This document shows, in pieces, positions 2,947 to 41,781 of a DNA stretch of 50,624 bases; the first letter of the stretch is position 1; every line of letters starts with the position of its first letter. The notes under the pieces were generated by a model. The model did no database searches. It was not told the DNA's origin and saw only the letters and a list, made by a program, of their open reading frames with translations. The stretch spans positions 1 through 50,624 of the forward strand of contig CAZAWR010000074.1 of assembly GCA_964488865.1 (NCBI GenBank), read 5' to 3'. Origin of the DNA: an uncultured Polyangiaceae bacterium. GTDB lineage: Bacteria; Myxococcota_A; Polyangia; Polyangiales; Polyangiaceae. Position numbers and translations under genes: made by a program.

Positions 2947-3052
2947 CGGGTTCAGAGTGGCCGCAGATGTCACAGAGATTCGCAGAAAGGGGAAAGGGGC
3001 TGGGGAGGCGATCGTCCTGTGCATCGGCGAATACAACCAATGCAACCCCACG

Positions 3053-3304
3053 CGCGGCGATGCCGCGCACACGCTGGACCCGGCGGTGCCGAGTCGCTAC
3101 GTCGGCGGATTTGTACCGACCTGAGCTTGCCTCAAGCATCACCACCCCTTCTGTGGTCTCTGCGGCTTCTGTGGTTTCACGCGCGGCGGTGCCGCGCACA
3201 GCGCTGGACTCGGCGGTGCCGAGTCGCTACGTCGGCGGATTTGTACCGACCTGAGCTTGCCTCAAGCATCACCACCCCTTCTGTGGTCTCTGCGGCTTCT
3301 GTGG
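3053..3304. repeat. Near-perfect tandem duplication of a ~126-bp unit (3053-3178 and 3181-3304) ending in the CTTCTGTGGTCTCTGCGGCTTCTGTGGTTTC element
   Basis: Direct sequence comparison. The units differ by only a few bases. Confidence 0.85.
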
Positions 3305-3481
3305 TTTCTGGGCTCACGCGCATCACCCGCTCTGCCAACCTCCGCACCAACCCACCATCTGTCAAACACGCGACCGCACATCCGCAAACACAACGAAAGC
3401 CATCTGCGGCTCTCTGCGGAATCTGCGGCCAACGAACCGTCTCGGCTCGGGCTCGGGATCAAGCTTGGGAGGATGGGGTGA

Positions 3482-3694
3482 TCAGGAGACCTGGGCGGGA
3501 CGCGTGACGTTGACAGCGAGCAGCCCCTTCGGGCCCTCCTGGATCTCGAACTCCACCGTCTCATCCTCAGCCAAGCTGCGGTGCCCGTCGCCGGTGATCT
3601 GCGAGTAGTGCACGAACACGTCGGGGCCCGCCTCCTGCTTGATGAAACCCCAACCCTTCGCGTCGTTGAACCACTTCACCTTGCCAACACTCAT
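3482..3694 (-). CDS. Cold-shock protein (CspA family)
   Basis: [18 protein letters not shown]...VFVHYSQI is the classic CSD sequence. GGAGG RBS precedes the internal ATG at 3694. The longer ORF start at 3781 is rejected. Confidence 0.9.
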
Positions 3695-3908: not shown

Positions 3909-5672
3909 TCAGGCCTCCGCCGGCTCGATCCAGAGCTCAGAACGCATCGTTTCTAGGTGTTTCTGCAGCTCCTGCAGCCGCGCGTCGTGTTTCTGGCACT
4001 CCGAAACGGCAAGCACTCGCGCCGCCTCTCCCCGCTCTCGCTCCCGGCGCGCCGACGTGAGCACGTCGAGCACTTCGCGATGAACTTCCTCGCCCGCGCT
4101 CACGACCCACGCATCGAGCCCGGTCGCGAACGCTTCGATCATCTCCTCGAGCCTGGGCCCGACCTTGTCCGCGGCTTCCCTCACCGCCTTGGGAGCCAAC
4201 TCCTTCGCCTTGTTTCGCGTCTCCGTCTCCACGCGCCCCCGCATGTACAGCGCGAGCACCGGTGCGGCGAGCACCAGCACCCCGCCGAGCATCCAGTTCG
4301 AGAACATCACCGTCAGCCCCACGCCCGCGAGGGCCGCCACGCCTACGTCGTACGCGAACGTATCGATCTCGATCGTGGGCGAGTGCATGTCGGCTCCCAT
4401 CTTCGTGGCGAGCCGGCCACCTGCGTCCCGCGCGTCTTCCCGCACCAGCGCGATCATCTTCTCCGCAAGCTTCTCGAGAGCCTCGGCGATCTCTTCCGTC
4501 TCCCGACGCGCCCAGTCGCGGAAGGTCCGCTCCAGGAACGCCCCGAGGTGCGCCTTCAGCTCGTCGATCTCCGCACCGTCCACCATGCCCGGGACCTGCT
4601 CGCACACGTCCTCGACGAACCGGTCGAGGTCTCGCTTGGTCCAGGCCTTGATCGCCGCGACCTCCTCCCGGATCGCCGCCCTTCGCTGCTCGATCGTCTT
4701 GGCCTGGCCCGCCAGGTCTTCCTTGATCGCGGCGATGCGACGGTCGATCTCTTCCACGCTCATCTCGAGCGCACGCCGCTTGGCGTCGATCCCCTTGGCG
4801 AGCAAGCCGCACGCCTTGATCCCGTCGCCCAGGGCGTTGTCGAGCATGATGCGGCCGCGCTCCTCGGACAGGAAGGTGGTGAGGTAGCCGAGCAGTTCAT
4901 CCATCCCGGAGTCGTCGCGATGGCCTTCGAGAGCCTTCTCGGCGCTGACGCAGAACACGCGCGGGTTGGTGACGAGCTTTCCGAGCTGCGACTGCACGTA
5001 GCCCATGGCCTGGTCCAGCTCGCCCGGGTCGAGGATGTCCTTCTTCGTCACCACGAACACGATCTTGTCTCGTGATTGCCCGAGCAACTTCTCTTGCAGG
5101 AAGACTCGCTCGCTCTCCTTCACGAGCTGGCCGGCATCCAGCAGAAACAGCACGGCGTCCGACTGGGGGATGTACTCGTAGGTGATCTCGGCGCGCGCCA
5201 GGGACAGGTCATTCACTCCGGGGGTGTCCACGAGTGCAATGTGCTGCCGCAACAGCTCGGCGGGGTACCGGACCTCGAGCACACGCACCGGACCGGGGTC
5301 CGGGTCCGGTGTCGGGTTCCCGATCGCGAAGAGCTTCACGTCACCGAACGCGATCTCCTCTCGCAGCCCGCTGTCGAACACCGCCGTGGCCCGCGGCTCC
5401 TCGCCGTACTCGATCTCGTGGATCACCGCCGTCGTGGGCGTGACCCCCACGGGGAGCACATCGGAGCCGAGCATCGCATTCACGAAGGTGGTCTTGCCGT
5501 GGTTGAACTCCCCCACCACGACCAGGTGGAAGAGGTTCTCCTCGAGCTTGTCCACGACCCCCTTCTGGATCCGGTCGCGGGTGAACGACGTTCCCAGGTC
5601 TCCGGCGACCGCCGTGAGCTGGCCGAGCACACCGAGCACTGACTTTCGCTTTTCGTTGAATGCGTCGAGCAT
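3909..5672 (-). CDS. Bacterial dynamin-like GTPase (BDLP family)
   Basis: G1 motif VVGEFNHGKTTFVNAML and DTPG are present, then long coiled-coil regions and a C-terminal hydrophobic paddle (VGVAALAGVGLTVMFSNWMLGGVLVLAAPVL). Start chosen at MLDAFNEKRK, whose ATG overlaps the stop of the upstream peptidase gene (ATGA). Confidence 0.8.
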   Translation of the reverse strand: MLDAFNEKRKSVLGVLGQLTAVAGDLGTSFTRDRIQKGVVDKLEENLFHLVVVGEFNHGKTTFVNAMLGSDVLPVGVTPTTAVIHEIEYGEEPRATAVFDSGLREEIAFGDVKLFAIGNPTPDPDPGPVRVLEVRYPAELLRQHIALVDTPGVNDLSLARAEITYEYIPQSDAVLFLLDAGQLVKESERVFLQEKLLGQSRDKIVFVVTKKDILDPGELDQAMGYVQSQLGKLVTNPRVFCVSAEKALEGHRDDSGMDELLGYLTTFLSEERGRIMLDNALGDGIKACGLLAKGIDAKRRALEMSVEEIDRRIAAIKEDLAGQAKTIEQRRAAIREEVAAIKAWTKRDLDRFVEDVCEQVPGMVDGAEIDELKAHLGAFLERTFRDWARRETEEIAEALEKLAEKMIALVREDARDAGGRLATKMGADMHSPTIEIDTFAYDVGVAALAGVGLTVMFSNWMLGGVLVLAAPVLALYMRGRVETETRNKAKELAPKAVREAADKVGPRLEEMIEAFATGLDAWVVSAGEEVHREVLDVLTSARRERERGEAARVLAVSECQKHDARLQELQKHLETMRSELWIEPAEA

Positions 5673-8541: not shown

Positions 8542-8559
8542 CCAGGTCGAGCGCCGCCA

Positions 8560-11445: not shown

Positions 11446-11767
11446 CCCGCTTCCCCGCTTCCCCGCCCCATCCGGAGCGTCCACCGTCGGTGCAAGCCGA
11501 GACGGTGACGTGTGCCCCGGCATTTCTCAGGTAGGACCCCACCCCAACGGTCTCAGGAGCGGTTCGAGGGTGGTTTGGACCCCAAACCAACGCGCTTAGC
11601 ATCGGTTCGGGGTGGTCTGGACCCGGTTACCCCGGCCTGCCAGCCGATGACTCACCCTGTGCCAGGCGGCCCAATCGTTAAGACTGTCACGGCGACGCGA
11701 ACGCGGCGCACCCGTCCGTCATCCAAGCAGGTAAGATGTTTCCAGGACCTGGGAGGCGAACGTGTGC

Positions 11768-11783
11768 TGGCACGCGATTCGCT
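11768..11783 (+). promoter_or_regulatory. Possible sigma-54 (-24/-12) promoter, TGGCACGCGATTCGCT
   Basis: One mismatch from the TGGCACG-N4-TTGC consensus. It sits about 14 bp upstream of the ATG at 11797. Confidence 0.3.
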
Positions 11784-11796
11784 TGAGTCTCCGACC

Positions 11797-12747
11797 ATGA
11801 CAAAATGGGCGCACATCTCGACGGCTCTGATTCTGGTGCTTGCCTCCACCGAGGCAGCAGCCCAAACAGGTCCCGGGTCGCCCTTCATGCCGGGCGGCCC
11901 CCTCGCCCCCTGGGTGGGTCCCTTGCCTTACCCCAACGTGGCGCCACCGAACGTCGCACCTCAGCCTGCACCTCAGCCTGCAGCTCAGCCTGCAGCTCAG
12001 CCTGCAGCTCAGCCTGCTGCGCCTCAGCCTGCCGCGCTTCCACCGACCGCCGCACCGGCCGCCCCCATGCCGGGCCCCATGGCTTTCCAAGCAGCGCAAC
12101 CCCAGCCCTTCGGCCCCTCCGCCTACGCACCCATGCCGGGCCAAGAGGGCGGCTTCGGCAACCCCGCCCAGCCCTCCTATTCCTACGGCCCTACCCCTCC
12201 CCCCACTGACGAGCCGTGGAAGCCCGTCACCCGGGACCGAGACCGCAAGACGTACGTCGCCGTCACAGGCAACCCCGCCCTCACCGTCGTGGGCAAGACC
12301 AGCGGACGCCTCGAAGTCGCGCCGCTCGCGGCCCATGCGGTCTTCGCAGAGGTCAGCCGCCTGTCCTTCTTCATCAGCGAGTTGAACCGCAAGATCACGG
12401 GCACGGAGATCGACGTCGGCTATCACCTGTTCCCGCAAGGACAGGGAGCCCGCGGCTTCTACCTCGGTCCGCGGTACCTGTCCGGAAGCGGTGATATCCC
12501 GGAAGCGTCGTGGGAGTTCAAGGGGTTCGGCGGCGACCTCGGATACCAGTGGGTCATCGCGAACCACCTGGTATTCAACCTCGGCGCGGGCATCGCACGG
12601 ATCGAAGGGAAGGCCGACCTCAAAGAGGATGCCTACGACCTTCCGGAGGGGATCGATCAGGAAGACCTCGGCGCCTTCTCGCTCTCGTCGCAGGAGGAGG
12701 CGTTCTGGGTTCCGATGCTGACGCTGGGTTTGGGGCTGGCGATCTAG
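11797..12747 (+). CDS. Secreted protein with a Pro/Ala/Gln-rich repeat (APQPAAQPAAQPAA...) and a C-terminal beta-rich domain
   Basis: Signal peptide MTKWAHISTALILVLASTEAAAQ. The longer ORF start at 11512 is rejected. Confidence 0.5.
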   Translation: MTKWAHISTALILVLASTEAAAQTGPGSPFMPGGPLAPWVGPLPYPNVAPPNVAPQPAPQPAAQPAAQPAAQPAAPQPAALPPTAAPAAPMPGPMAFQAAQPQPFGPSAYAPMPGQEGGFGNPAQPSYSYGPTPPPTDEPWKPVTRDRDRKTYVAVTGNPALTVVGKTSGRLEVAPLAAHAVFAEVSRLSFFISELNRKITGTEIDVGYHLFPQGQGARGFYLGPRYLSGSGDIPEASWEFKGFGGDLGYQWVIANHLVFNLGAGIARIEGKADLKEDAYDLPEGIDQEDLGAFSLSSQEEAFWVPMLTLGLGLAI

Positions 12748-12980
12748 CTGTGTTGATATCCCGATGTGGACTCTTCACGGAGCTGCATGACACCGGGATC
12801 CTCGAGTAGATCCCGTACGCGGGCCAAAGAGCCCACGGCAATGCTGGGGAAGCCCGCCGTGGCGGGCTTCGAACGATACACCTTGTCCAACAGTGTCATC
12901 GAGTCCTGCTGGCCCATGCTATCCCGGTGGAGTTCGAGGAGTCCTCACAGGGAGCCAGAAAGCACCAAACAACCCTCTGC

Positions 12981-13013
12981 CTTCTGTGCTCTCTGCGACC
13001 TCTGTGGTTTCTC
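12981..13013. repeat. Repeat family 1 element (CTTCTGTGCTCTCTGCGACCTCTGTGGTTTCTC)
   Basis: Matches 3148-3178, 3273-3304 and 14460-14492. It lies about 40 bp 3' of the rhomboid gene's stop. Confidence 0.75.
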
Positions 13014-13049
13014 TTCCGGCGCGGGCAAGGTCCGTTTGGCGCCTTTCCA

Positions 13050-14438: not shown

Positions 14439-14505
14439 CTGCCAACCTCCGCACCAACCCTTCTGTGCTCTCTGCGACTTCTGTGGATTCTCCTCCGGCT
14501 CGGGC
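14439..14505. repeat. Repeat family 1, composite copy (CTGCCAACCTCCGCACCAACCC + CTTCTGTGCTCTCTGCGACTTCTGTGGATTCTC + CTCCGGCTCGGGCTC)
   Basis: The three sub-blocks occur dispersed across 3148-3455 and fused here. This copy lies immediately 3' of the kinase gene that ends at 14506. Confidence 0.75.
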
Positions 14506-16167
14506 TCACTTCGGCGGAGGCACCGAAGGACCGCCACCCACCGGCCGCCCCCACGGGTGCCGCTTCAAGATCGCCCAGCCTCGCTTCTGGATCTGCGGGT
14601 CGAGCCTCCCTTCGGTGGCAGCACGCAAACAGGCCGCGAACTCCTCCACGGTCGCAAACCGGTCGTCTCGACGCTTCGCCATGCCGATCGCGAGCACGAG
14701 CTCCACGTCGATCGGGATCCGCACGTAGTCGCTCGGGCTCGGAGGCTGAAGGTGAAGAACATCGTACAGGACATTGCCGACGTCGGTGCCTGAGAGCGGA
14801 GGGACGCCGGTGATGGCTCGGTAGGCGATGGCCGCGAGGGCGTAGAGGTCGGCCTGGTGGTCCACCTCGGGTCCGACGATCTGCTCGGGAGCCATGTAGG
14901 ACGGCGTTCCCACGGCCATCTCCCCGGTGAGCGAGCTCGTGAGCTCGACGATCTTCGAGAGGCCGAAGTCGAGCACCTTCCAAGTACGCGGGATGGTGTC
15001 CGTGAGGAAGAGGTTGCCTGGCTTGAGGTCCCTGTGGACGATGCCAGCGTCCCGCACGGCAGCTAGCGCGGTAGCGACCTGCTCGCACAGGCTCGCGACC
15101 TCGCCGAGGGCAAGCCGGCCGCTGCGCCGCAGATGCCAGCCCAGATCGTGGCCTTCCAGAAGCTCCATCACAAGGTAGGGGACGCCGGCCTCGGTCTCCG
15201 CAAGCTCGTACACGCGCGGGACGTGTGCGGTGTCGACGGCCGAAGCAGCCTGGGCCTCCCTTGCGAACCGCAGCACGTTCTCTTCGTGCTCCATCATGGC
15301 CGGGTGTAGCAGCTTGACGGCAACGGGCATGCCGCTCGGGTCGACGGCACTGTAGACGTCGCCCATCGCGCCGCGCCCGAGCATCTCTCCGAGCTCGTAC
15401 TTGCCGATCATGCCGCCGACGTAGCGACCGCGCGTCGCGCCTTCCACGCGGGCCAACTCGCCCTGCGCCTCGGCGAGCAGGGCATCCTTCTTCTGGATCT
15501 GAAGGTTCGCGTCGCGGACCCTCTCGACGGCGCGCTCGCCTTCCTTCCGGGTGCTTCGGGCGAGATAGAAGATCAACCCGAAGTTGACCTGCGACATGAT
15601 CACCTGGAACCACGGGGTGAAAGGGTCCGTGGCTCGCACGTGAAAGAGGCTGAGGTCGGGGATGACCCCGGACGCCACGCCCACCGACACGATCAGGTAG
15701 ACGATCGCGACCGTCGCGTAGACGGAGCGAGCCACGAGCGAGCTGTGGCTGGTGCCGTAGAAGTAGACCGCCAAAGCCAGCAACATGGCGCCCGCGGAGA
15801 ACACACCGATGTAATAGATGATGACCGTGCCGATCAGGACGCCGACAGTGCCGATGCCTGCGGCCACTCCGCGCGTGTACCGGTGTGGCGTGCGAAGCAG
15901 GACGAGCGCGATGCCGGACACGAGAATGACGCCCAGACAAGCGATGGCGTTCAGGGCGCGCAGCCAGGGGTCCCCGGCCAGCAGAGGCGTGAAGCCGCCT
16001 GTGGCGGCCACGATCACGAGGACCGCGAGATAGAACACGCGCGATCGGCTGACCTCCTCGGCGTGAAACACAGCGGCGATGTTCACGCCGGGGCGAGATT
16101 CGGCAGGTCCGGCGGACACGACCGAAGCGAACGGCGGAACGGCGTGCTCGTGGTGGATCGCTGTCAT
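14506..16167 (-). CDS. Ser/Thr protein kinase with an N-terminal polytopic membrane domain
   Basis: About 6 transmembrane helices and a coiled coil precede a C-terminal Hanks kinase domain (VAVKLL, HRDLKPGN, DFG, APE). Start taken at MTAIHHEH. Confidence 0.8.
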   Translation of the reverse strand: MTAIHHEHAVPPFASVVSAGPAESRPGVNIAAVFHAEEVSRSRVFYLAVLVIVAATGGFTPLLAGDPWLRALNAIACLGVILVSGIALVLLRTPHRYTRGVAAGIGTVGVLIGTVIIYYIGVFSAGAMLLALAVYFYGTSHSSLVARSVYATVAIVYLIVSVGVASGVIPDLSLFHVRATDPFTPWFQVIMSQVNFGLIFYLARSTRKEGERAVERVRDANLQIQKKDALLAEAQGELARVEGATRGRYVGGMIGKYELGEMLGRGAMGDVYSAVDPSGMPVAVKLLHPAMMEHEENVLRFAREAQAASAVDTAHVPRVYELAETEAGVPYLVMELLEGHDLGWHLRRSGRLALGEVASLCEQVATALAAVRDAGIVHRDLKPGNLFLTDTIPRTWKVLDFGLSKIVELTSSLTGEMAVGTPSYMAPEQIVGPEVDHQADLYALAAIAYRAITGVPPLSGTDVGNVLYDVLHLQPPSPSDYVRIPIDVELVLAIGMAKRRDDRFATVEEFAACLRAATEGRLDPQIQKRGWAILKRHPWGRPVGGGPSVPPPK

Positions 16168-16331
16168 GACGGCTCGTCGCTGGACCGGGTGTCGGTCGTT
16201 GGGCAATCCGCCCCGGTGTCCTCCCGGCCACCGATCTTGGGGCAACCGGGTCGCGAATCCTAGCGAAATGGGCTGCGGAGCCAGAACCGACTGTCGAGGG
16301 GTCAGAGCCGGCCAAGCCGGCCAGGCCAGAG

Positions 16332-17741
16332 TCAGAACCGAGTGTCGAAGGGGTCCGAACCAGCCGGGGCCGCGGTAACAGGAGGTGTCGAACGCACCGG
16401 TGGCGTGCGCCGCGAGGACACGGTCGCGGCGGGAGGGACGTTCACCGGGGAGACCGAAGGGACAGCAGCCGAATCGACTGCCCTGGTGCTCGCCGTGACA
16501 ACGGGAGACACGTCGTGCGAAGCGGAAGGCGACGGCGCTTGCACAGAGGAAGCGGGAGGCACGGTGTCGGGAGCGGGTCGCGCGCGATGGCGGTAGAGGC
16601 CCCACGCCAACCAGCAGGCCACGAGTCCTCCGAGAACCCCCAAGACGATCCATACTCGCGGCGACCGCTTCTCGGGGGGTTGGGGCGACGTGGCGGGCTC
16701 GGAAGCCTCCTTCGCCTGGGCGGCCCTCGTCATGCTCCGATACCGGACGAGGCTGGCAGACGAGCCCTCCCCCGGTCGAGCCACCGACGGCGGCCTGAAG
16801 CGCTTGCCGGTCTCGGAGCGCTCGAGCGTGTCCGCCACCGCCCTGGCAAGCGGCCCGAAGGCCTCTCCTCCCACGGAAGCCAAATCAGCCGCCAACTTCC
16901 CCACGTCGGGTGTGCGTCGTGACAGGTCCCGGGTGAGGCAACGCAGGATGACCGCTTCGAGCGCCGGGTCGACGTCCGGATTTTGCTCGCGCAAGGGCGG
17001 GATGTTGCGACCTTCGGCGACCTGGAGGATGAGCTTGGAGGTGGACTTCTCACGAAAAGGCGGCGCCCCCGCCAGCATCTCGTAAAGGATCACGCCGAGC
17101 GACCAGATGTCCGCGCGATGGTCGACGGTTTCCGCACTGCTGACCTGCTCAGGCGCCATGTACCGAGGCGATCCAATGAGCGTCCCTTCGGCCGTCAGGT
17201 CCTCCGCGGTCAGGTCACGCAGCTTCGACAGCCCGAAGTCGACGATCTTGACCAGGTCGGAGCCGTCGACGTCCTGCGTGATGAACAGGTTTGCGGGCTT
17301 GAGGTCACGGTGGACGATGTTGCGTCGATGGGCATCGGCCAGGCCCTGGCACGTCTGGATTCCGTAGCGAATGACGACGGGCACGTCGAGCTGCTCTTGC
17401 CTCTTGAGCTTCGCGCGGAGGGACTCTCCCACGAGCAGCTCCATGACCAGGAACGGGTGTCCTTGCTCGTCCACGCCGAAGTCGTTCAACCGCACCACGT
17501 GGCGTCCCCGAAGCTTCGCAGTGACGCGCGCCTCGCGGAGGAACCTCGCCCTGAAGTGCTCCTCGTTGCCCTTCGCGACCGAGAGGAACTTCACGGCAAC
17601 GGGCTCGTCGAGGAAGATGTGGCGGGCCACCACGACCACACCCATGCTGCCACGCTCGAGCAAGGACTCGACGCGATACCGCCCATCGATGACCGTTCCC
17701 GGTTCGACGATGGTGGCAGGTGTCGACGGACCTTCTGTCAT
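16332..17741 (-). CDS. Ser/Thr protein kinase: N-terminal kinase, Pro/Ser-rich linker, one transmembrane helix and an extracytoplasmic tail ending DPFDTRF
   Basis: VAVKFL, HRDLKPAN, DFGLS and SPRYMAPE are present. It is a paralogue of 21154..22581. Confidence 0.85.
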   Translation of the reverse strand: MTEGPSTPATIVEPGTVIDGRYRVESLLERGSMGVVVVARHIFLDEPVAVKFLSVAKGNEEHFRARFLREARVTAKLRGRHVVRLNDFGVDEQGHPFLVMELLVGESLRAKLKRQEQLDVPVVIRYGIQTCQGLADAHRRNIVHRDLKPANLFITQDVDGSDLVKIVDFGLSKLRDLTAEDLTAEGTLIGSPRYMAPEQVSSAETVDHRADIWSLGVILYEMLAGAPPFREKSTSKLILQVAEGRNIPPLREQNPDVDPALEAVILRCLTRDLSRRTPDVGKLAADLASVGGEAFGPLARAVADTLERSETGKRFRPPSVARPGEGSSASLVRYRSMTRAAQAKEASEPATSPQPPEKRSPRVWIVLGVLGGLVACWLAWGLYRHRARPAPDTVPPASSVQAPSPSASHDVSPVVTASTRAVDSAAVPSVSPVNVPPAATVSSRRTPPVRSTPPVTAAPAGSDPFDTRF

Positions 17742-21153: not shown

Positions 21154-22581
21154 TCAGAAACGGTCGTCGAACGGATCAGGCGCGGGCACGGAGACGGGCG
21201 AACGCTCGCTCCCCGCCACCGACGGCTTGGACGTCGGTACGACACGCGGTTCCGGACGTGGAGGTCGTGGGCGGGGAGCATCGCCACCAGGGCTTTGGTC
21301 GGCAGACGATGCACCGAAGGGAGGTGGCCCAGCATCCACAGCGTTGTCCGCCGAGGATCCGATGGCGAACGAACCATCGGGAGGGGTGGTATCGGACCGA
21401 GGCGCGGAGGTCACCGGGTTCGAAACGGCACTCGACGGTTCCAGGCGATCCGGACGAAGGGCTGCCCAAGCGAGAACGACGGCTCCCGTGATCCCCGCGA
21501 GCGCGAGGGAAAGAACGAAGGTCCGCGGCCGCTTCCTCTGGATGATCTTCGACCGCGTCTTCGAGGAAGATCGGGAGTCCACGCGGCGCTTCGGCGCGTT
21601 GTGCCGCACGTCCAGCGGGCTCATCCGATTGGGCGGCACCGTTCGCTCGAGGGTCCCGGTGATGCTCGCCGCTGCCGCGGGGAGACCCTCGAGGCTGGAC
21701 GCCTTCGCCAACTCCTGGGCGAGCGTCCCAACATCCGGCATTCGCTCATTCAAGTCACGCCGCAGACATCGAAGGACCACCGCCTCGAGCTCGGGGGTAA
21801 CGTGGGGAACCCGACCCGCGAGAGCGGACGGTATTTCGTCACGCAAGATCTGATGACACAGGGCCGCCGCGGATTCCGCAACGAAGGGAGGATGCCCGGC
21901 GAGCATCTCGTACAGAACGACGCCCAGCGACCAGACGTCCGCCCGCGCGTCGGCCCGCCCTGAGCTCTCGAGTTGCTCGGGCGCCATGTAGCGCGGACTC
22001 CCAAGGATCGCCCCCGTCGCCGTGATGTCGTCCTCTGTCCCGGGCAAGGAGAAGCTCTTCGATACCCCGAAGTCGACCACCTTGATGAGGTCAGTGCCGT
22101 CCGGACGCGTCGTGAGGAACAGGTTCGACGGCTTCAGGTCACGGTGCACGATGCCCAAAGCGTGCGCCTCAGCGAGCCCCGCACACGCCTGCACGGCATA
22201 CCGAATCGCAACCCCCACGGGCAACGAGAGCTCTTTTTGAAGAACCTCGCGCAGGTCGACCCCGTCGAGGTACTCCATGACCATGAACGGGGTGCCGTCG
22301 TCGAGCAGACCGTAGTCCGTCACGCGCGTGGTGTTCTCGCCGCGCAATCTGGCCGTGATCTTGGCCTCGCGCATGAAGCGCGCCCTCGCGGCAGGCACCC
22401 GATCCACGTCCAGGGTCAGAAGCTTGATGGCCACACGCTCCTGCAACTCGAGGTGCTCCGCTTCGACAACGGTGCCCATTCCACCCTGCCCGAGCAGGGC
22501 ACGGATCACGTACTTGCCGGCAATGACATCACCGACCCCGAACGCGTCCCCGCGACATGCCGTCTCGATGGGCTTGGGCAT
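21154..22581 (-). CDS. Ser/Thr protein kinase (paralogue of 16332..17741) ending PDPFDDRF
   Basis: VAIKLL, HRDLKPSN, DFGVS and SPRYMAPE are present. The architecture matches 16332..17741. Confidence 0.85.
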   Translation of the reverse strand: MPKPIETACRGDAFGVGDVIAGKYVIRALLGQGGMGTVVEAEHLELQERVAIKLLTLDVDRVPAARARFMREAKITARLRGENTTRVTDYGLLDDGTPFMVMEYLDGVDLREVLQKELSLPVGVAIRYAVQACAGLAEAHALGIVHRDLKPSNLFLTTRPDGTDLIKVVDFGVSKSFSLPGTEDDITATGAILGSPRYMAPEQLESSGRADARADVWSLGVVLYEMLAGHPPFVAESAAALCHQILRDEIPSALAGRVPHVTPELEAVVLRCLRRDLNERMPDVGTLAQELAKASSLEGLPAAAASITGTLERTVPPNRMSPLDVRHNAPKRRVDSRSSSKTRSKIIQRKRPRTFVLSLALAGITGAVVLAWAALRPDRLEPSSAVSNPVTSAPRSDTTPPDGSFAIGSSADNAVDAGPPPFGASSADQSPGGDAPRPRPPRPEPRVVPTSKPSVAGSERSPVSVPAPDPFDDRF

Positions 22582-23651: not shown

Positions 23652-24782
23652 TCACTCCACCCCACCATAGCGGCGCACGGACTGGATGCGACGGCCCTCC
23701 GGATAGGACTGAACGTACTCGAGGGCGCGGTCTCTCGCGGCCACGGTCTGTCCGGCCTTGGCGAGGGCTTCGACCTCGCGTGCGAGCGCGTCCTGCGACA
23801 ACGCGCCGCCTGGTGCCAAGCGTCGGGCCGCGGCAAAAGCGCCCGCAGCTTCCCCTGGCCGTCCCAACTCGTCGAGCAACACCCTTCCCAAGGTGAACGC
23901 GGCCAGCGGCGCCCTCGGGTCCCCCGCATGGCTCCCCACCACCTGACGCAACGGAGCCACCGCCTGTCCAGCATGCCCACTGAGGCGCGCCACGTCCGCC
24001 GCAAGCATCAGGTCCGCCACGTTGTCTCGAACCGCATCCTTGCCCTCTCGCTGCAACGCCTCATAGGCCTCCGCATGCTGCCCCTGCAACGCCAGCGCTC
24101 GCCACGTCGGAACCTCCACGGCCGACGCGACCGGCGGCACCGCCGCCCGCCCCCGCGCAGAGGACACGGCAGGCGCCACGTCGTCGAAGTCCAACTCCAG
24201 ATCCACCGGCGCCGGCTGGGGCGGGAAGAGCCCGCTCTCCCCGGCTCGCAAGGTCCGGCTCCCGTCCTTCCACGAAACCTCGACCACCCCGTGCTCCACG
24301 GACACCGAAACCCACTCCTCGCGCTCCACCGTGAACGAGGTCCCTACCACCCTCACCGCTACCTCGCCCGCCACCACCACGAACGCCCTCCGCTTCCCAG
24401 GCTCCACATCGAAACGCACCTTCCCCGAGGACACCGCCACCTGCACCCGCTCCTCCGTCTCCACCTCGGGCCGCACGACCGTCCCAGGGCGCAACGGCGT
24501 CGCCGTCGAACCGTCCGCGAAGCGAACCATCGACATGGACGGCACCAGCGCCGTGGTCTCCGGAATGTTCGGCAAAGGCTTCAGACGATCCATGCCCACC
24601 ATCACGAGCAGAGCGATTGCAACCACCGCGGCGAGCGCCACTGCCCCCTGCCGCATCCGGACCCGACGGTCCCTCCGCCGCACCATCATCGCCTCGGCCG
24701 CTTGCGAGCGCTCCGGCGTCCAGCGCACCTGCACGTGCGCCCCCGCGTCCTCAATTTGTCTCAGGAGGTCAGCCATCACCAA
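23652..24782 (-). CDS. FecR-like anti-sigma factor (one transmembrane helix, FecR domain, C-terminal TPR-like)
   Basis: VRVVGTSFTVERE. It overlaps the 3' end of the ECF sigma gene. Confidence 0.6.
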   Translation of the reverse strand: MVMADLLRQIEDAGAHVQVRWTPERSQAAEAMMVRRRDRRVRMRQGAVALAAVVAIALLVMVGMDRLKPLPNIPETTALVPSMSMVRFADGSTATPLRPGTVVRPEVETEERVQVAVSSGKVRFDVEPGKRRAFVVVAGEVAVRVVGTSFTVEREEWVSVSVEHGVVEVSWKDGSRTLRAGESGLFPPQPAPVDLELDFDDVAPAVSSARGRAAVPPVASAVEVPTWRALALQGQHAEAYEALQREGKDAVRDNVADLMLAADVARLSGHAGQAVAPLRQVVGSHAGDPRAPLAAFTLGRVLLDELGRPGEAAGAFAAARRLAPGGALSQDALAREVEALAKAGQTVAARDRALEYVQSYPEGRRIQSVRRYGGVE

Positions 24783-25347
24783 GTGCCTCCTCGATCACCG
24801 CTTGCGCAGCCACGATTCGACGTTTCGCCGTCGCCAGGGAACAACCCGTCAGCTGCGCCACGTCTTCCAGCTTCTCACCCTCCATGTGCCTCAGCACCCA
24901 CGCGATGCGCGCCTCCACCGGGATCTTGTCGAGCACCCCGTACACCCGCGACAGCAACGCCCGTTGATCGGCCGACGCCCCAGGCGCGATCGGCTCGTCG
25001 ATGTACGCCACGTCGTCGAACCCGAACACCGCCTTGAAACGCCTCATCCGCAGCCGCCGACGCACCACCCGCACCGTCACGGTCGCCAGCCACGCCTTGG
25101 CGGCCCCGGGGTCCCGGATCTGATGAATCCCCTTGATCGCCCCGAGAAAGACGTCCTGAACGATGTCGTCCACCTCGTCATCGCGCCCGAGCAGTCGCAG
25201 GGCGATGGCAGCCACGTAGGGCGAGTAGCGACGAAAGGCGGCATCCAGGCTCAAAGGCTCTTCGGCCGAGGCCTGGGCGGCACCTCCGACTACCACGCGC
25301 AGCGCTGCATGACTTGGTCGCATCGTTGATCCCGTGGTGGCATCCAC
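24769..25347 (-). CDS. ECF-family RNA polymerase sigma factor
   Basis: Region-2 and region-4 motifs are present (DIVQDVFL..., LEDVAQLTGCSLATAKRRI). Confidence 0.8.
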   Translation of the reverse strand: MDATTGSTMRPSHAALRVVVGGAAQASAEEPLSLDAAFRRYSPYVAAIALRLLGRDDEVDDIVQDVFLGAIKGIHQIRDPGAAKAWLATVTVRVVRRRLRMRRFKAVFGFDDVAYIDEPIAPGASADQRALLSRVYGVLDKIPVEARIAWVLRHMEGEKLEDVAQLTGCSLATAKRRIVAAQAVIEEALGDG

Positions 25348-30331: not shown

Positions 30332-31342
30332 CTAGAAACGTCCCACGACGCCGAGCGACCCGGGCCCCAGGTTCCACTGCACGCCGGAAGCCCTCTGCGG
30401 CTCCGCATCCCGATCCAGAGTCAAGTACAGCGAAATCCCACCCGCCACCACCGCGCCCACCCCCAACACATCCGTAGCCAGCGCCCATCGCTTCGCATCC
30501 GAGCTGGCGTCGTCCAACGCGTCTCTCCCCGCGTTCGGTGTTCCTCGCAGGTCCTGCAGGTCGGACGACGCCCGTAGGGCAAGAGCTCCCGTCGTGACCG
30601 CGCCCACCACCAGCAGCCCCGTCAGCGTCCACCCAACCCACGGCACGGACGTCTCTTCCGGCCCGACCGGCGCCGGAGGCAAGGCGGGCGCCGGCACCAC
30701 GGGCAACGCCACCGAAAGCGCGGTATTGGGCACCTCCGGTTCCATCGGCTGCGACTTCGCCCCATCGAACTGCAAGCGGAGCGTGACCTCCTCCGCTCCC
30801 GCCACATCCACCACGTGGACCACGGGCGCGTGCCCCTCGAACCGGGCCCTGACGCGGCGACGACCCGAGCTCACGAGGACAGGCGGCAGCGGCGTCACGC
30901 CCATCAACACGTCGTCGACGTACACCTCCACGCCGTCGTGCTCCGCGCTGATCGCGATGCGCGCCACGCGCGTGCGCAGCCTCTCCATGTCCCGCTCGAC
31001 CTCTTGTCGTCGTTCGGCGTCGATCCTGTCCGCCCCCTCGTGCAGGTAGCGTTCGAAGGAGCGTAGCGAACCGGCGTAGTCCTGCAGTTGAAACTGCACC
31101 TGGGCGATGTTGTAGAGAATGCGAAAGGAGGGGGCGAGCTCGTAGGCTCGCTGGAATTCCACGAGCGCCGCACGGAAGTCGTCCTCCGCATACAGCTCGA
31201 GACCACGACGGAAGCGCGCCTGAGCTTCCCCCATGGTCTCGCTCTGTTCGTCGTCTGCCACGTCCTGCCCCTGCGCAGGCGCCGCCACGCCCAGCACGAG
31301 CGCGACGCCGCACGGCCAGAGCCGTGCCCTCAGCGCGCCCAT
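30332..31342 (-). CDS. TPR-like / beta-rich single-pass membrane protein (STK partner; paralogue of 20051..21103)
   Basis: Same architecture as 20051..21103. Its start overlaps the stop of the kinase gene by 13 nt. Confidence 0.55.
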   Translation of the reverse strand: MGALRARLWPCGVALVLGVAAPAQGQDVADDEQSETMGEAQARFRRGLELYAEDDFRAALVEFQRAYELAPSFRILYNIAQVQFQLQDYAGSLRSFERYLHEGADRIDAERRQEVERDMERLRTRVARIAISAEHDGVEVYVDDVLMGVTPLPPVLVSSGRRRVRARFEGHAPVVHVVDVAGAEEVTLRLQFDGAKSQPMEPEVPNTALSVALPVVPAPALPPAPVGPEETSVPWVGWTLTGLLVVGAVTTGALALRASSDLQDLRGTPNAGRDALDDASSDAKRWALATDVLGVGAVVAGGISLYLTLDRDAEPQRASGVQWNLGPGSLGVVGRF

Positions 31343-32919
31343 GGGTCCTCCGAGTCGATCGGCCGCTTCGTCGATCCCGGCTTCGGACGCGTCGCCGCCG
31401 GCACCAGCACCCGCGTTGAAACCGGGGCAGGCGCGCTCGCGCTCGGCATGACCGCGAGCGTCATGTCGACGAACACGTCCGACTCGACGACAACCTCCCG
31501 GGTCTCCGGCACACGGCCCGGCGACTCCGCTCGAACCCTGAGGGTCGCCCCGTCCGCCACGAGCGTCCCCTCGTAGGGATTGGTCGAGACCTCGACGCCG
31601 TCGAGAAAAACCGTCGCCTCCGGCGGCTTCACCGAGATCCGAACCCGCACGCTCCCGAGATCAGCCGGCGCCGAAACGGACCTCTCTGCCATTGCGCCAG
31701 CCGCAGCGGGCACCGGCTCTCGCCCTGAACGGAACACCAGCACGAGGATGGCCGCCACCACCGCGGCCGACAGCACCACCAACGCCCCCGCCTTCCACGA
31801 CCTCCCAGTACCTCCTTCGTGATGCCGATCGGAGGCAACCATCGACCGCTCCGTCTGGGTCTGCTCGCCCTGTCCCTTCGGAGGGTGGTCCGAAGACGAC
31901 GCCGACAGATTCTCGACCTCCACGTCCACCTTCGCGTCACGGAGCCGGTGTAGCTGGCGCTCGATGATGGTCTGCATCAAGAGGCGATCGTCGGCAAACA
32001 GCGCCGCCACACGCGCCCCCAGGTCGTCCACGGACACCCTCATGCCGGCCGCCTCGACATAGCTCAGAAGATCCTGGTGCATCTCGAGCGCGTTCGCATA
32101 CCGGTCTTGCGACTCCACCGCGAGGGCCTTGTCGCAGATGCGCGCAAGCGGTTCCGCGACCTCGACACCCTCGTCGCGAATCCGTGGCACGGCGCCAGCC
32201 ATCAACCGCTCGGCGATCTCCGAAGACGGCGCGCCCTTCCACAGCCTCACTTCCGTCAGGAACTCCCATAGCAGGACCCCCACCGAGAACACGTCCGCCC
32301 GACGGTCGACGTCGCCTCCCAGGGCTTGCTCCGGTGACATGTAGGCGAGCTTCCCCTTCATGACGCCCGCACTCGTCTCCGTCGAGGAGTCGAGCGCCTT
32401 CGCCACACCGAAGTCCATCACCTTCACGTCGCCGCCGTAGGTCACGAAGACGTTGTGCGGGGACACGTCGCGGTGCACGACGTGCAAGAGGGTGCCGTCA
32501 TAGTCGCAAAGCTCGTGGGCATGGTGCAATCCTTGAAGCACCTTGAGCACCACGTGGAGACGCATGTCCAGCCCGAACCGGGACTTCGCACGCTGGATGA
32601 TTCTCCGAAGCGGTTGCCCCTCGAGATACTCCATCGCGATGTAGTACCTGCCAGCGTCTTGCCCCACCTCGTGCGTGGAGACGACGTTGCGGTGGCTGAG
32701 CCGCGCCGCGAGCCTGGCTTCGTCCAGGAACATCGCCAAGAACTCTTCGTCCTCGGCGAGGTTCGGCCGAAGCTGCTTGATCACGTGCAGCTTGTGGAAC
32801 CCTCCCATGCCCTTCGCGACGGCAAGGAAGACGTCGGACATACCCCCGTGGCCAAGCTCAGCAATGAGCCTGTACTTGCCAAGGGTGATGGCAGCCGGGC
32901 TTCCGAAGGACACCGCCAC
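31330..32919 (-). CDS. Ser/Thr protein kinase with a transmembrane helix and a C-terminal beta-rich extracytoplasmic domain
   Basis: HRDVSPHN, DFGVAK and SPEQ. Confidence 0.85.
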   Translation of the reverse strand: MAVSFGSPAAITLGKYRLIAELGHGGMSDVFLAVAKGMGGFHKLHVIKQLRPNLAEDEEFLAMFLDEARLAARLSHRNVVSTHEVGQDAGRYYIAMEYLEGQPLRRIIQRAKSRFGLDMRLHVVLKVLQGLHHAHELCDYDGTLLHVVHRDVSPHNVFVTYGGDVKVMDFGVAKALDSSTETSAGVMKGKLAYMSPEQALGGDVDRRADVFSVGVLLWEFLTEVRLWKGAPSSEIAERLMAGAVPRIRDEGVEVAEPLARICDKALAVESQDRYANALEMHQDLLSYVEAAGMRVSVDDLGARVAALFADDRLLMQTIIERQLHRLRDAKVDVEVENLSASSSDHPPKGQGEQTQTERSMVASDRHHEGGTGRSWKAGALVVLSAAVVAAILVLVFRSGREPVPAAAGAMAERSVSAPADLGSVRVRISVKPPEATVFLDGVEVSTNPYEGTLVADGATLRVRAESPGRVPETREVVVESDVFVDMTLAVMPSASAPAPVSTRVLVPAATRPKPGSTKRPIDSEDPWAR

Positions 32920-39982: not shown

Positions 39983-40057
39983 GCTTCCCCTCCCTGTGCT
40001 ACGCCCGCACCACAAAAAGCAAACGGCTGATTCTCTTTCGAAAACCAGCCGTCTGGG

Positions 40058-40131
40058 TCGGGGCGAGAGGATTTGAACCTCCGACACCACGGTCCCGAAC
40101 CGTGTGCGCTACCAGGCTGCGCTACGCCCCG
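40058..40131 (-). tRNA. tRNA-Pro (anticodon CGG)
   Basis: Hand-folded: acceptor CGGGGCG/CGCCCCG, D-arm GCGC-AGCCTGGTA-GCGC, anticodon loop TTCGGGA, T-arm GGAGG-TTCAAAT-CCTCT. Closely resembles E. coli proK. Confidence 0.85.
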
Positions 40132-40159
40132 AGAGGGCCTGCCACCCTACCGGGCGACA

Positions 40160-40789
40160 TCAATCAGGGGGCGCAGCATGGTTGGCGACGCTCCCTATGT
40201 CAAGCCGCTCGTCTGCTACCCTGACACTTTCCTCTCCGTGGCGCCATGACCGAACCGCACTTTCCCGCTTGTCCCCTGTCCCGAGCGCCAGCACGCGCTC
40301 CGAGGCGGTGCCCTTGAGAAGCGACGCGAGCACCTCCGCCACGCTCTTGCCCCCAAGGATCGCCAGCGGCGCCATCGACTGGGCCACCCGCTCCACCATC
40401 GCCCGGTCCCCGAACGCTTGCCCCACCCGCTTGATCGCGTGCCGCAACCAGGACCGCATGTGGTCCGTCAGGAACTTCACGTAGTTCTCCACGTTGAACC
40501 AGCGGTTCGGGTCCCCCTCCAAGTTCACGCGGTACGACAGACGCACGTGCACCGTGCAGGTGTCCTTCGTCTCCGCCTTCACGATGTCCGACACCTTGTT
40601 GTGCAGCGCGCGCACGTACACCGTCTGCAACAGCTTGTCGTCGTTCTTGGGCGTGCCCGTCGACAGCACCATGCCCTCCAGCGTCTCGTCGTACTCGAGC
40701 AGGTGCGTGGCAGGTCCGACGATGACCTTGCGGCTCCCGCTCTTGCTCACCGCCAGGACCGCATACCCGGTCCACACCGAGATGGTCAC
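40160..40789 (-). CDS. Hypothetical protein
   Basis: High-GC3 ORF with no recognised motif. Confidence 0.4.
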   Translation of the reverse strand: MTISVWTGYAVLAVSKSGSRKVIVGPATHLLEYDETLEGMVLSTGTPKNDDKLLQTVYVRALHNKVSDIVKAETKDTCTVHVRLSYRVNLEGDPNRWFNVENYVKFLTDHMRSWLRHAIKRVGQAFGDRAMVERVAQSMAPLAILGGKSVAEVLASLLKGTASERVLALGTGDKRESAVRSWRHGEESVRVADERLDIGSVANHAAPPD

Positions 40790-40863
40790 GGCCCCTTCGT
40801 ACTTGGTGCCGAGGGTGATCGTGCGCGGCGGCGTGAACTGCGTCCTGAGGCCCGGGTCTCGAG

Positions 40864-40877
40864 GGGCACGTGCCCCA
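40864..40877. promoter_or_regulatory. Perfect 14-bp palindrome GGGGCACGTGCCCC about 80 bp upstream of the 40789 start
   Basis: Seen in sequence. Candidate operator or hairpin. Confidence 0.35.
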
Positions 40878-40968
40878 TCGTGAATCGAACCCTGGCAGAA
40901 TCACTGCGGAGAATCCAGCCACAAGCTGCCGGCGGGATCGCAGAAAAGCGGGCACGAATAGACGAGAG

Positions 40969-41781
40969 CTACGGACGCGACGGCGCCGAGGTGGCCGCGG
41001 GGGCACCCGATGCCGACGCCGATGCCGACGCCGATGCCGACGCCGATGCCGACGCCGATGCTGGCGGATCTCCCGCGCCCGGTCCCACCGAGTCGATCAT
41101 GCGCAAGAACGCCTCTCTCGCCCCGTGCACGGTGGCTTGAGGACCGAGGAGCTTGAAGTAGTACGGGCCCATGGGCGTCTCTACGATCGCACCCACGAGC
41201 GACCATCCCGGGTGTTCGGTGGCCTTGTCGGCCGACTCCATACCCATCCCGGTAGGCTTGTACGTTCCCGACGTCTCCACCACGTGCACCAGGTTGGGTC
41301 CCGCGCGTCGCTGGGATCGCTTCGCCTGCGCCGCGCCATCGAAAGAAGAAACCCAGCGCTGGAGGGTCTCGTCCACGGCCAAGGCGGCGGGGCCGAGGTG
41401 AAATACCGAAACCTCCGCGGGCACGCCGCCAGGTTCCAGCGACGGCACGCGGTACTCGGCCAGACGCATGGGGCTCGAGGGCGGCACCTGCGACCAACCC
41501 TCCGGTAGGTCCCATCGCAGGGCGGGAGCCTCCGCAGCGGGAGATTTCGACTCCGCCATCGGTGCGGCTGCGGAGCCCACAGGTCTGGCCACGCCGTCCA
41601 CGAACACCACGGTCGGCTTCCGGGAGGCATTGGGGCGAAGCACGGCCGGGTCGTTGAACCGGGTATCGACGGGGGCATCGGTGTTGCAGCCGATCGCGAC
41701 CGACGCCGCAACCAGGACGAAGCCCACAGCGCGAGAAGAGCGGCTTCTACGCGAGAATCGGCAAAGCGACGAGCTGGACAT
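40969..41781 (-). CDS. Lipoprotein with a C-terminal (Ala-Ser)n repeat
   Basis: Signal/lipobox MSSSSLCRFSRRSRSSRAVGFVLVAASVAIGC. The (AS)10 run is encoded by (GATGCCGACGCC)n at 41009-41062. Start overlaps the end of serA by about 35 nt. Confidence 0.45.
   Translation of the reverse strand: MSSSSLCRFSRRSRSSRAVGFVLVAASVAIGCNTDAPVDTRFNDPAVLRPNASRKPTVVFVDGVARPVGSAAAPMAESKSPAAEAPALRWDLPEGWSQVPPSSPMRLAEYRVPSLEPGGVPAEVSVFHLGPAALAVDETLQRWVSSFDGAAQAKRSQRRAGPNLVHVVETSGTYKPTGMGMESADKATEHPGWSLVGAIVETPMGPYYFKLLGPQATVHGAREAFLRMIDSVGPGAGDPPASASASASASASASASASGAPAATSAPSRP

Follow-up and report, generated by a model that had tools for sequence, protein, structure and literature searches.

The DNA analysed here, called the window throughout, is a 50,624-nucleotide stretch of a contig (CAZAWR010000074.1) from an uncultured Polyangiaceae bacterium, with a G+C content of 63-70%; all coordinates are window positions unless a relative or phage contig is named. 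At 2947-3481 it holds a convergent intergenic region, bounded by the stop codon of a forward-strand metallophosphoesterase gene (2944-2946) and that of a reverse-strand cold-shock gene, csp (gene 3482-3694, stop codon 3482-3484), both identified with Pfam. The region is a mosaic of repeat modules belonging to a family, here called family 1, whose arms also stand beside a rhomboid and a kinase gene of the window. We report that loci of this family differ between close strains and that its core is a module found across many bacterial phyla, two points that lay beyond the reach of an earlier note, made from the letters of the window, in which the repeat was first described.

An almost perfect tandem duplication is present in the csp region, as had been noted, though it is not the 126 bp at 3053-3304 then given: Tandem Repeats Finder returns 2.0 copies of a 130-nt unit with 97% matches at 3049-3308 of the + strand (2 x 130 nt), and a second comparison of the duplicated halves, 3072-3178 against 3202-3308, gave 99%. 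Each unit comprises small GC hairpins and a GGATTTGTACCGAC module, with an arm at its end. The two arms (3148-3178 and 3278-3308, + strand) are identical 31-nt sequences made of three 9-mers, CTTCTGTGGTCTCTGCGGCTTCTGTGGTTTC, and were found both with a degenerate pattern and with nhmmer. The core CTTCTGTGsTCTCTGCGryTCTGTGGwTTC recurs, as described, at these two positions and at 12981-13013 and 14460-14492, always on the + strand; as a degenerate pattern it has 10 matches in the window against 0.10 expected, and an nhmmer profile made from relatives' copies recovers the same four arms with E values of 7e-14 to 3e-12.

Two shorter repeats had also been proposed. The first, the C-rich module CTGCCAACCTCCGCACCAACCC, is exact at 3332-3353 (+ strand; one base after the start of 3331 originally noted) and at 14439-14460, against 0 matches expected, and it lies directly 5' of the arm in canonical copies of the subfamily that we call A below. 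The second, CTCGGCTCGGGCTC, has an exact match only at 3441-3454, and the supposed copy near 14490 has dissolved: the sequence there is CTCCGGCTCGGGCTC (14493-14508), which has only GGCTCGGGCTC in common with CTCGGCTCGGGCTC, and GGCTCGGGCTC belongs to a (CTCGGG)n microsatellite found beside family members in relatives. In the csp region this flank is represented by CTCGGC/CTCGGG hexamers at 3437-3460 (+ strand), as compared with the variable-length (CTCGGG)n beside arms in relatives.

Two further arms of the csp region had been overlooked. A reversed arm at 2958-2986 (- strand; the + strand reads GGCCGCAGATGTCACAGAGATTCGCAGA), recognised as an inverted repeat and conserved in the related contigs L121 and L122, is the outer partner of a palindromic element. 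A third forward arm at 3403-3431 (+ strand, TCTGCGGCTCTCTGCGGAATCTGCGGCCA) is divergent, has a 1-nt indel in its phasing and lies in a ~125-nt piece absent from L121 and L122. The two form an inverted repeat of 29 nt with 83% identity, and in the minimum-free-energy fold the reversed arm is paired with a forward arm.

Between the stop of a forward-strand gene (12747) and that of the rhomboid gene (13050) lies a 302-nt composite element (12748-13049, + strand). Its arm at 12981-13013 (+ strand, found by pattern and profile), a member of subfamily B, is 37 nt from the rhomboid stop, and folding pairs it with a decayed partner arm, TCACAGGGAGCCAGAAAGCACC, at 12945-12966 (- strand), which had likewise escaped notice; the subfamily B consensus has a folding z of -4.06 on the + strand and -0.63 on the - strand. 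The left 200 nt of this insert are a repeat found beside arms elsewhere (paralogues in L173, L146 and L188, 78-81% identity), and this 200-nt module accompanies the arm at four loci. The composite element also contains a GC hairpin, GAAGCCCGCC-GTG-GCGGGCTTC (12849-12870), whose loop differs in length by 1 nt among paralogues; we therefore rejected an overlapping 57-aa open reading frame (ORF; 12744-12917) as a real gene, its conserved core being this hairpin. At the kinase gene, the C-rich module (14439-14460), the arm (14460-14492) and the CTCCGGCTCGGGCTC flank together occupy 14439-14508 (+ strand) and end at the kinase stop codon (14506-14508). Read in the sense of the gene (- strand), the C-rich module is GGGTTGGTGCGGAGGTTGGCAG, with GGGGTTGGGGTTGGTGCGGAGG in relatives, a G-tract-rich sequence with possible G-quadruplex potential. 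The copies at about 12983 and 14462 are single-armed or have a decayed partner, and most copies in the window are single-armed. Forward arms stand 14-51 nt from the stops of the csp (3482), rhomboid (13050) and kinase (14506) genes, as identified with Pfam, in keeping with the original description of copies just downstream of minus-strand gene stops.

Comparison with close relatives shows that these loci are polymorphic. An exact look-up of the csp product gave five syntenic contigs 94-97% identical to the window, and rhomboid homologues led to L126 (92-94% identical) and to the more distant L127 and L133; gene calls in the compared loci are heuristic. The csp intergenic region measures 535 nt in the window, 277 nt in L122, 240 nt in L121 and L124, and 24 nt in the more distant L133. 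In the relatives it consists of one palindromic element, which on the csp-sense strand has a left arm AACCACAGAAGCCGCAGAGACCACGGAAG, an interior of ~108 nt and a right arm TCTGCGAATCTCTGCGACATCTGCGGCC, and the 130-nt unit is present as a single copy in L121, L123, L124 and L125. What the window has in addition is the 130-nt duplication and the ~125-nt piece carrying the third arm, and L126 has an insertion similar to the latter at a different site. The rhomboid intergenic region is 302 nt long in the window and in L195 (94.7% identity) and 10 nt long in L126, while the gap between called genes is 24 nt in L127 and 1 nt in L133. The reverse case is seen at 8542-8559, where the 18 nt of the window correspond to 138 nt with an arm in L126, and at the kinase locus the one copy of the window corresponds to two direct copies in L126, L153 and L195. 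Copies are thus gained, lost, tandemly duplicated and recombined between closely related strains, and locally this accounts for up to about 20-30-fold differences in gene-end intergenic length between close Polyangiaceae strains. In two filled/empty comparisons of the window with L126 (12748-13049 and 8542-8559) we found neither a target-site duplication nor terminal inverted repeats on the inserts, which points to a single-strand (HUH-type), recombination or replication process rather than to cut-and-paste transposition by a DDE enzyme.

Nor are copies limited to the region described here. When metagenomes were scanned with the lineage-specific arm, 96 loci emerged, and the sample containing the 94-97% identical relative contributed at least 35 of these on large contigs of up to 514 kb. 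The family is therefore spread through the genome and is not the product of simple local duplication. Alignment of the loci resolves two modular subfamilies. Subfamily A has the order ...CGAGTCGCTACGTCGGCGGATTTGTACCGAC...CTGCCAACCTCCGCACCAACCCCAnCCCC-arm-TTTCCGG(CTCGGG)n and includes the csp and kinase copies, and subfamily B, to which the rhomboid copy belongs, reads (CTCGGG)n-CTGAAACTATCCTCGCAAGGAGCCAGAAAACACCAAACAACCCTCTGCC-arm-TTTCTCTTCCGG(CTCGGG)n. Tandem arrays with a period of 81-158 nt are common (L149, L153, L186, L196, L202 and L209), and thus the 130-nt duplication of the window is typical behaviour for the family. Repeat-rich, high-GC gene-end regions of this kind also seem to draw doubtful ORF calls: a 204-aa gene called beside the rhomboid gene in L126 (1379-1993), across the element, has no Pfam match and overlaps what is a real opposite-strand gene in the window. 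Knowledge of the element may thus be of use in assembly and annotation.

A phased arm across phyla and phages

The core of the arm extends far beyond this lineage. A scan of one genome per species with CTGYGNNCTCTGYGNNNTCTGYGG yielded at least 120 stretches; counts given for cross-phylum arms are among the matches listed, and by our own arithmetic about 140 chance matches would be estimated for the whole 596-Gb collection. An inverted partner (at least 19 of 26 matches, within 700 nt) was found for 82 of the 147 arms, as compared with a maximum of 17 matches for shuffled arms, and an outer flank, T-T-[A/C]-[A/G], which lies outside the search pattern, is conserved in pairs and single arms alike. 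On these grounds, and on that of the shared arrangement of pairs given below, the cross-phylum matches cannot be attributed to chance. The resulting module, TTMR-CCRCAGAG-NN-CRCAGAG-NN-CRCAGAG, is spread over more than 15 phyla, mostly in the form of inverted pairs that fill gene-end intergenic regions. In 75 of the 82 pairs the arrangement is 5'-CCRCAGAG...loop...CTCTGYGG-3', with the CC ends outward and a loop of 4-413 nt (median 53).

Paired elements were found in Acidobacteriota, Planctomycetota, Verrucomicrobiota, Chloroflexota and Bacteroidota; in alpha-, beta-, gamma- and deltaproteobacterial groups, Thermodesulfobacteriota and Binatia; in Gemmatimonadota, Aminicenantes, Elusimicrobia, Calditrichaceae and Rifleibacteriota; and in Negativicutes and Peptococcaceae. 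BLAST against annotated plasmids and megaplasmids added copies, none of them annotated, in the cultured species Bacteroides ovatus, B. finegoldii, Gemmatirosa kalamazoonensis and Pseudoalteromonas shioyasakiensis; the B. ovatus copy, with a perfect stem of ~30 bp, fills a 100-nt gap between gmd and the fucose synthase gene (fcl), inside an operon. The interiors of the elements are unrelated between genomes, and within one genome a family extends past the arms into longer, family-specific palindromes (for example L004 and a marine low-GC family). Different unit types (CACAGAG, CGCAGAG, CACGGAG, CACGGAT, CGCGGAG, CGCAAAG and CACAGAT) nest or adjoin.

The arms themselves have a distinctive pattern of conservation. 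A profile of 126 arms reads CC-R-CAGAG / NN / C-R-CAGAG / NN / C-R-CAGAG, and the same R is present in all three units in 109 of the 126, against 63 expected. When the arms of 57 inverted pairs were joined by an artificial loop, 86.8% of cells were paired, and changes on both sides numbered 128 compared with 62 +/- 8.5 in shuffles. Strong covariation marks the R positions (A-U 43, G-C 12, other 1) and the flank base, while the four spacer columns are unpaired in 17-31 of the 57 elements (30-54%). As conservation extends to the heptamers and the 9-nt phase but not to the 2-nt spacers, phased recognition sites seem a better description of the arms than a plain stem, and to judge from the alignment the signature resembles neither that of a continuous helix nor one specific to RNA.

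Inverted pairs in a fixed relative orientation, with variable interiors of 4-413 nt, recall a classical MITE (miniature inverted-repeat transposable element), where the arms would be the terminal inverted repeats of a deleted insertion sequence (IS) moved by a DDE transposase in trans. The existence of within-genome families with conserved interiors and ends, and the nesting of elements, would fit such an origin. Set against it are the two empty-site comparisons, which revealed no target-site duplication, and the position of the arms, often internal to longer palindromes. Moreover, no long ORF is enclosed between partner arms (searched up to 700 nt either side; the largest loop is 413 nt), no arm pair at IS-like spacing was present in the first 120 loci listed, and single arms predominate in phage contigs as they do in the window. 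We regard the MITE reading as the least supported of those considered here, and as very improbable.

The same pattern was used to scan IMG/VR, and the viral counts below are again among the matches listed. In phage contigs single arms outnumber paired ones by 137 to 24, and arms are co-oriented within a contig. One example, L302 (IMG/VR UViG_3300024287_000138), is a Mu-like late region encoding Gp27, a large terminase, portal and Mu F proteins, a capsid protein and a virion morphogenesis protein, with an arm in many of its intergenic gaps; another, L266, encodes an HNH protein, a C5-methylase, a ParB-like protein and a phage metallopeptidase. Phage arms of several unit types adjoin, and many end in ..YGYGG followed by TTAA, TAAA or CTAA. 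A 764-aa ORF of L302 joins portal and Mu F domains and has an arm in frame between the two, at 5263-5287. Phage Mu encodes them in separate adjacent genes, and the in-frame element may have fused two genes or may be translated.

One phage family has a conserved intergenic region (L235, L237, L277, L294, L301, L307, L314, L324 and related viral loci), which on the sense strand runs from a stop codon (TGA or TAA) through a CCACAGAG arm, GCGGAAC and four TTAAAAC-like 7-8-mers to a start codon, so that a second kind of tandem-unit array directly adjoins the arm in that family. Among cultured phages (INPHARED) the module is essentially absent, with one record from a fecal metagenome.

Gene-end position, RNA structure and possible function

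The position of the arm relative to genes is equally constrained. For the lineage loci, with neighbours assigned by a gene caller based on G+C content at third codon positions, the GG end of the arm faces the stop of an opposite-strand gene in about two thirds of high-GC loci, typically at a distance of 8-150 nt, and the neighbouring genes are arranged '-|-' in 16 cases, '+|-' in 14, '+|+' in 8 and '-|+' in 2, divergent contexts being rare. Every copy had been thought to share one orientation relative to its gene; what emerges is a bias of roughly 2:1, with about one third of the lineage loci the other way round. Across phyla, 47 of the 50 classifiable pairs are intergenic, and of these 17 (36%) lie between convergent genes, 24 between tandem genes and 6 between divergent ones. 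Convergent arrangements make up 17% of intergenic regions, or of intergenic length, in those loci. Arms are typically 5-45 nt from each flanking gene end.

Phage single arms allow polarity to be assessed independently of a gene caller. Among 122 such arms, some of which come from one phage family and hence are not independent, the CCRCAGAG-sense orientation has an ORF of at least 100 codons ending no more than 45 nt upstream in 55 cases and the opposite orientation in 20, so that here too copies are not scattered without regard to direction. In 22 cases the stop codon of that ORF directly abuts the CC, and the triplet before the CC is TAA, TGA or TAG in 53 of the 122, where 4.7% would be expected. 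Two conclusions follow from these distributions: the preferred polarity, ~2-3:1 overall, makes the CCRCAGAG strand the sense strand of the gene that has just ended, and copies are found almost exclusively in the handful of bases separating a stop codon from the following gene. With respect to the replication strand, only a weak association with GC skew was seen (27:16, p = 0.13, and 54:46).

Polarity of this kind, with arms abutting stop codons, bears on what we consider the main alternative to a mobile repeat, namely that the arms are binding-site arrays for a conserved DNA-binding protein (a nucleoid-associated protein or global regulator, a roadblock or a terminator factor) and are kept for a function in the host. 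Three heptamers in strict 9-nt phase with free spacers, a heptamer conserved across phyla and phages, and the juxtaposition of differing unit types in phage intergenic regions would all be consistent with it, and binding by IHF/HU-type regulators has been proposed for equivalent elements in Geobacter (PMC2700814). However, no candidate protein is known, and arms are nearly absent from the divergent regions where promoters lie (6 of 47), as they are wholly absent from such regions among the Geobacter class 2 pairs in the part of that account available to us. Individual sites are also dispensable, because copies are gained and lost between strains at 92-97% identity, and close relatives can be without the elements altogether, as is Geobacter sulfurreducens. 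Finally, by our own reasoning, a 9-bp phase would place successive sites on different faces of B-DNA. This alternative shares the inference of phased sites with the reading that we prefer, and differs in whether the elements are selfish or functional; we think it unlikely, if the most serious of the competitors.

A position right after stop codons, on the sense strand, could also suggest that the element functions in the 3' untranslated region (UTR) as RNA, whether as a structured RNA, as a small RNA derived from the 3' end, as a protein sponge or as a signal for translation termination or reinitiation. Intercistronic copies within operons (gmd-fcl in B. ovatus and, in the accessible part of the Geobacter account, pdh E1 alpha/beta) would be compatible with this, as would the commonest spacer, GA, which creates AGAGGA strings resembling Shine-Dalgarno or GGA motifs. 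The whole csp intergenic region folds better than shuffled sequences on the csp-sense strand (z = -3.6). Against an RNA function, the copies at 12983 and 14462 have z values of only -0.4 to -1.2 on both strands, spacers are often unpaired, one third of copies have the opposite orientation and some arms are in frame inside ORFs, as in the portal-Mu F fusion of L302. In addition, mismatches between arms show no strand-consistent G-U: transition mismatches scored as G-U versus A-C gave 20 fully concordant elements against 19.5 expected. Rfam at its gathering threshold found only tRNAs in the window and 11 loci, and we found no link of the element to tRNA or tmRNA. We consider an RNA function a distinctly unlikely explanation.

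The earlier note had offered four readings, a 3'-UTR element, a small RNA, a terminator-associated repeat and a REP-like element. What stands of these is a dispersed, orientation-biased element of 3' flanks that is not due to chance; the structured small RNA is not supported on the evidence just given, and the canonical terminator fares no better, as a consensus scan gave 10 sites against 10.8 expected in 20 kb, only one of which, at 3414-3395, falls inside the element. There the csp-sense strand has a hairpin followed by a U-rich tail; the flanks of arms are otherwise A-rich or mixed.

We turn to the reading that family 1 is a non-autonomous, mobile intergenic repeat similar to repetitive extragenic palindromic (REP) sequences and bacterial interspersed mosaic elements (BIMEs), with heptamers read by a protein and a hairpin that acts as a barrier at 3' ends; taken as a whole package, we would put this at about evenly balanced between right and wrong. 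On this account the element is a mosaic of short modules around an arm of ~30 nt with three phased 9-nt units, each a heptamer CRCAGAR with a 2-nt spacer. The phased heptamers would be recognition sites for a trans-acting protein that spreads or uses the element, and spread might proceed by an HUH or single-strand type of process, or through recombination or replication slippage between arms. Arms that face each other could form a long interrupted hairpin, and by analogy with REP and BIME hairpins this would probably serve both flanking genes as a 3'-end barrier, blocking 3' exonucleases, or as a terminator. In favour of this account are the dispersal of copies, the presence/absence differences, the arrays and mosaicism, the polarity at gene ends, the cross-phylum module and the conserved heptamers set out above.

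As to context, there is no conserved neighbouring gene: all-against-all BLAST of ORFs from the 120 genome and 120 viral loci listed returned only common families and phage head genes. Several observations count against this account. A Pfam scan of window ORFs revealed no gene for a transposase, an integrase or a RAYT-type protein (REP-associated tyrosine transposase); with no mobilising enzyme found, mobility is deduced only from presence and absence, and some of those differences could be deletions. In several genomes (L004, the marine low-GC family) longer palindromes enclose the conserved arms, which are therefore not simply transposon termini, and in a small sample of close relatives orthologous arms show no visible excess of conservation over their flanks. 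Conservation of sequence across phyla is atypical of REP and MITE families, most of which are specific to a species. A single arm, the dominant form in phages, cannot make a hairpin, so a hairpin or terminator role is not the whole story.

A bolder reading would make the module a pan-bacterial, phage-borne, polar signal of gene ends, in which three phased heptamers are read by a conserved protein or by a universal machine such as RNA polymerase or the ribosome, and inverted pairs are simply two signals for convergent genes. Placed directly behind the stop codon, such a signal might, for instance, terminate transcription in a polar, factor-dependent way, work as a roadblock or mark a site of mobilisation. 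We hold this to be a rather unlikely but consequential idea: if true, the module would represent a new class of signal and not another species-specific REP family.

The cross-phylum module has implications of its own. If it is what it seems, a 27-nt sequence is common to intergenic elements of Myxococcota, Acidobacteriota, Planctomycetota, Bacteroidota, Cyanobacteria, Chloroflexota, Pseudomonadota and Negativicutes and to their phages. As extragenic repeats are normally species-specific, such sharing would imply either a widespread, as yet unnamed trans-acting protein or repeated horizontal spread. A polar mark of gene ends that often supplies or abuts the stop codon would, if true, also be relevant to the ending of transcripts in phyla with few canonical terminators.

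Other repeats and genes of the window

Related arms with a period of 8 nt (..CCTCCGTGGTGAA, ..GTGCCTCCGTGCCTCCGTGGTGAATCTCTTTCAGGC), also overlooked before, occur at about 49085-49133, 49341-49371 and 50556-50585, and match the cross-phylum right-arm end CTCYGTGG-TGAA. Two of these copies are 94% identical over 52 nt, and the second (49341-49371) overlaps the predicted start of an ORF at 49369-50538. A further repeat family has 11-nt units, CCGCG[C/G]ATAG(A), at 45963-46013, 48876-48942 and 48981-49031, on either side of a MukF-like gene (46155-47735). Its inverted arms show the reverse of the family 1 arrangement (CTATCCGCGG...CCGCGGATAG) and have no loop; on its sequence it looks like the same design principle with a different unit, and it is probably the "family 2" of the earlier note. 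Direct repeats with 79% identity, ~3 kb apart, bracket the MukF-like gene and an AlkZ-like/HATPase_c_4 gene (45588-45812 and 48584-48808, 225 nt; 45935-46026 and 48953-49044, 92 nt), and may represent a duplicated module or the boundaries of an inserted segment.

Tandem repeats of other kinds are a 24-nt unit present 3.3 times with 100% identity, in frame inside an ORF (1-79); a 12-nt unit, GCAGCTCAGCCT, present 5.2 times at 11956-12017, which encodes (AQPA)n in a 411-aa ORF (11512-12747) with no Pfam match; and a perfect 12-nt repeat of 4.6 copies, CCGATGCCGACG, at 41007-41061. Among the genes, a 246-aa ORF (40160-40900, - strand) that adjoins tRNA-Pro (40054-40132) has the shoulder and repeat domains of the Major Vault Protein (PF11978, 4e-12; PF17795), an unusual finding in bacteria. 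On the - strand, four paralogous genes for Ser/Thr protein kinases with DNA-level repeats in common lie within 18 kb (14506-16653, 16332-17741, 21154-22581 and 31330-32919), and an ECF sigma/FecR pair is found at 23652-25347.

Comparison with known systems

Literature searches with sequence strings returned only primers, and the keywords foldback elements, MITEs and small dispersed repeats gave nothing relevant; the sole match was a study of Geobacter metallireducens (Aklujkar et al. 2009, BMC Microbiol 9:109; PMC2700814). It describes 21 pairs of "class 2 global regulator binding sites", each built from the repeat TCTCCGTS[Y] (CACGGAGA on the other strand) three times in tandem. The paired sites are on opposite strands at variable distance and, in the part of the account available to us, are intergenic in 3'/3' or 3'/5' contexts only; binding by a global regulator of IHF/HU type was proposed there without a test (PMC2700814). 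The same paper reports related classes with octamer and heptamer units, finds an IS110-family element, ISGme8, inserted at a fixed distance from class 1 octamer pairs, and finds none of these elements in G. sulfurreducens (PMC2700814). The cross-phylum set shares with class 2 the three tandem units of ~9 nt, the opposite-strand pairs and the intergenic position, it includes CACGGAG units of the class 2 type, and at the csp locus the reversed arm at 2958-2986 is paired in the same way with 3148-3431. On the other hand, the class 2 unit is one transition off the commonest unit, CACAGAG, and was described in one genome only, in a description without the polarity, stop-codon abutment, phage copies and strain polymorphism found here.

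The REP, BIME and REPIN (REP doublet) elements of E. coli and Pseudomonas resemble the present family in being high-copy, extragenic and located at gene ends and inside operons, in forming inverted doublets, as we found when this was tested, and hairpins, in their mosaic and tandem arrangements and in the lack of target duplications. REP elements also attract IS110-family insertions, a likeness seen for the related class 1 pairs of Geobacter. They differ in that the REP unit is a short imperfect palindrome of 20-40 nt, whereas the arm here consists of three direct 9-mers without an internal dyad; in that REP carries a GTAG or CGTC tag, whereas the arm ends in TT[A/C][A/G]-CC; and in that REP is species-specific, whereas the heptamer is common to phyla and phages. 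With no palindrome and neither tag, the arm falls outside REP as strictly defined.

BOX elements of Streptococcus pneumoniae and mycobacterial interspersed repetitive units (MIRUs) are modular, with variable tandem internal units, and are intergenic or intercistronic and oriented with the operon; MIRUs overlap or abut stop and start codons. Their sequences are unrelated to the arm, however, and they are lineage-restricted, with units of 45-100 nt in place of the 9 nt seen here. Integron attC sites, including those in clusters without an integrase (CALINs), are imperfect palindromes with conserved ends and a variable centre that follow the stop of each gene in one orientation, and the TTAAC|C and G|GTTAA ends of a subset of arms fit the RYYYAAC and GTTRRRY of attC. 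Yet attC arms are not built as tandem repeats, TTCACC or TTAGCC forms the end of most arms here, there is no integron integrase or cassette array here, and arms also occur inside phage structural operons.

Other candidates were compared and rejected. The outermost 9-mer, TT[A/C][A/G]CCACA, resembles TTATCCACA and raised the possibility of an array of DnaA boxes (TTATNCACA), which have T at position 4; T is found there in 1-2% of arms, and the inner units match the box at 4 of 9 positions by inspection. MraZ boxes (10-nt phase), CsrA GGA and Hfq ARN motifs, Chi-like sequences and lambda-type integrase arms, considered along with attC, fail on phase, sequence or distribution. The local element is of a known, REP/BIME-like kind; what is unexpected is that its recognition core is common to many phyla and phages, where it is set against stop codons.

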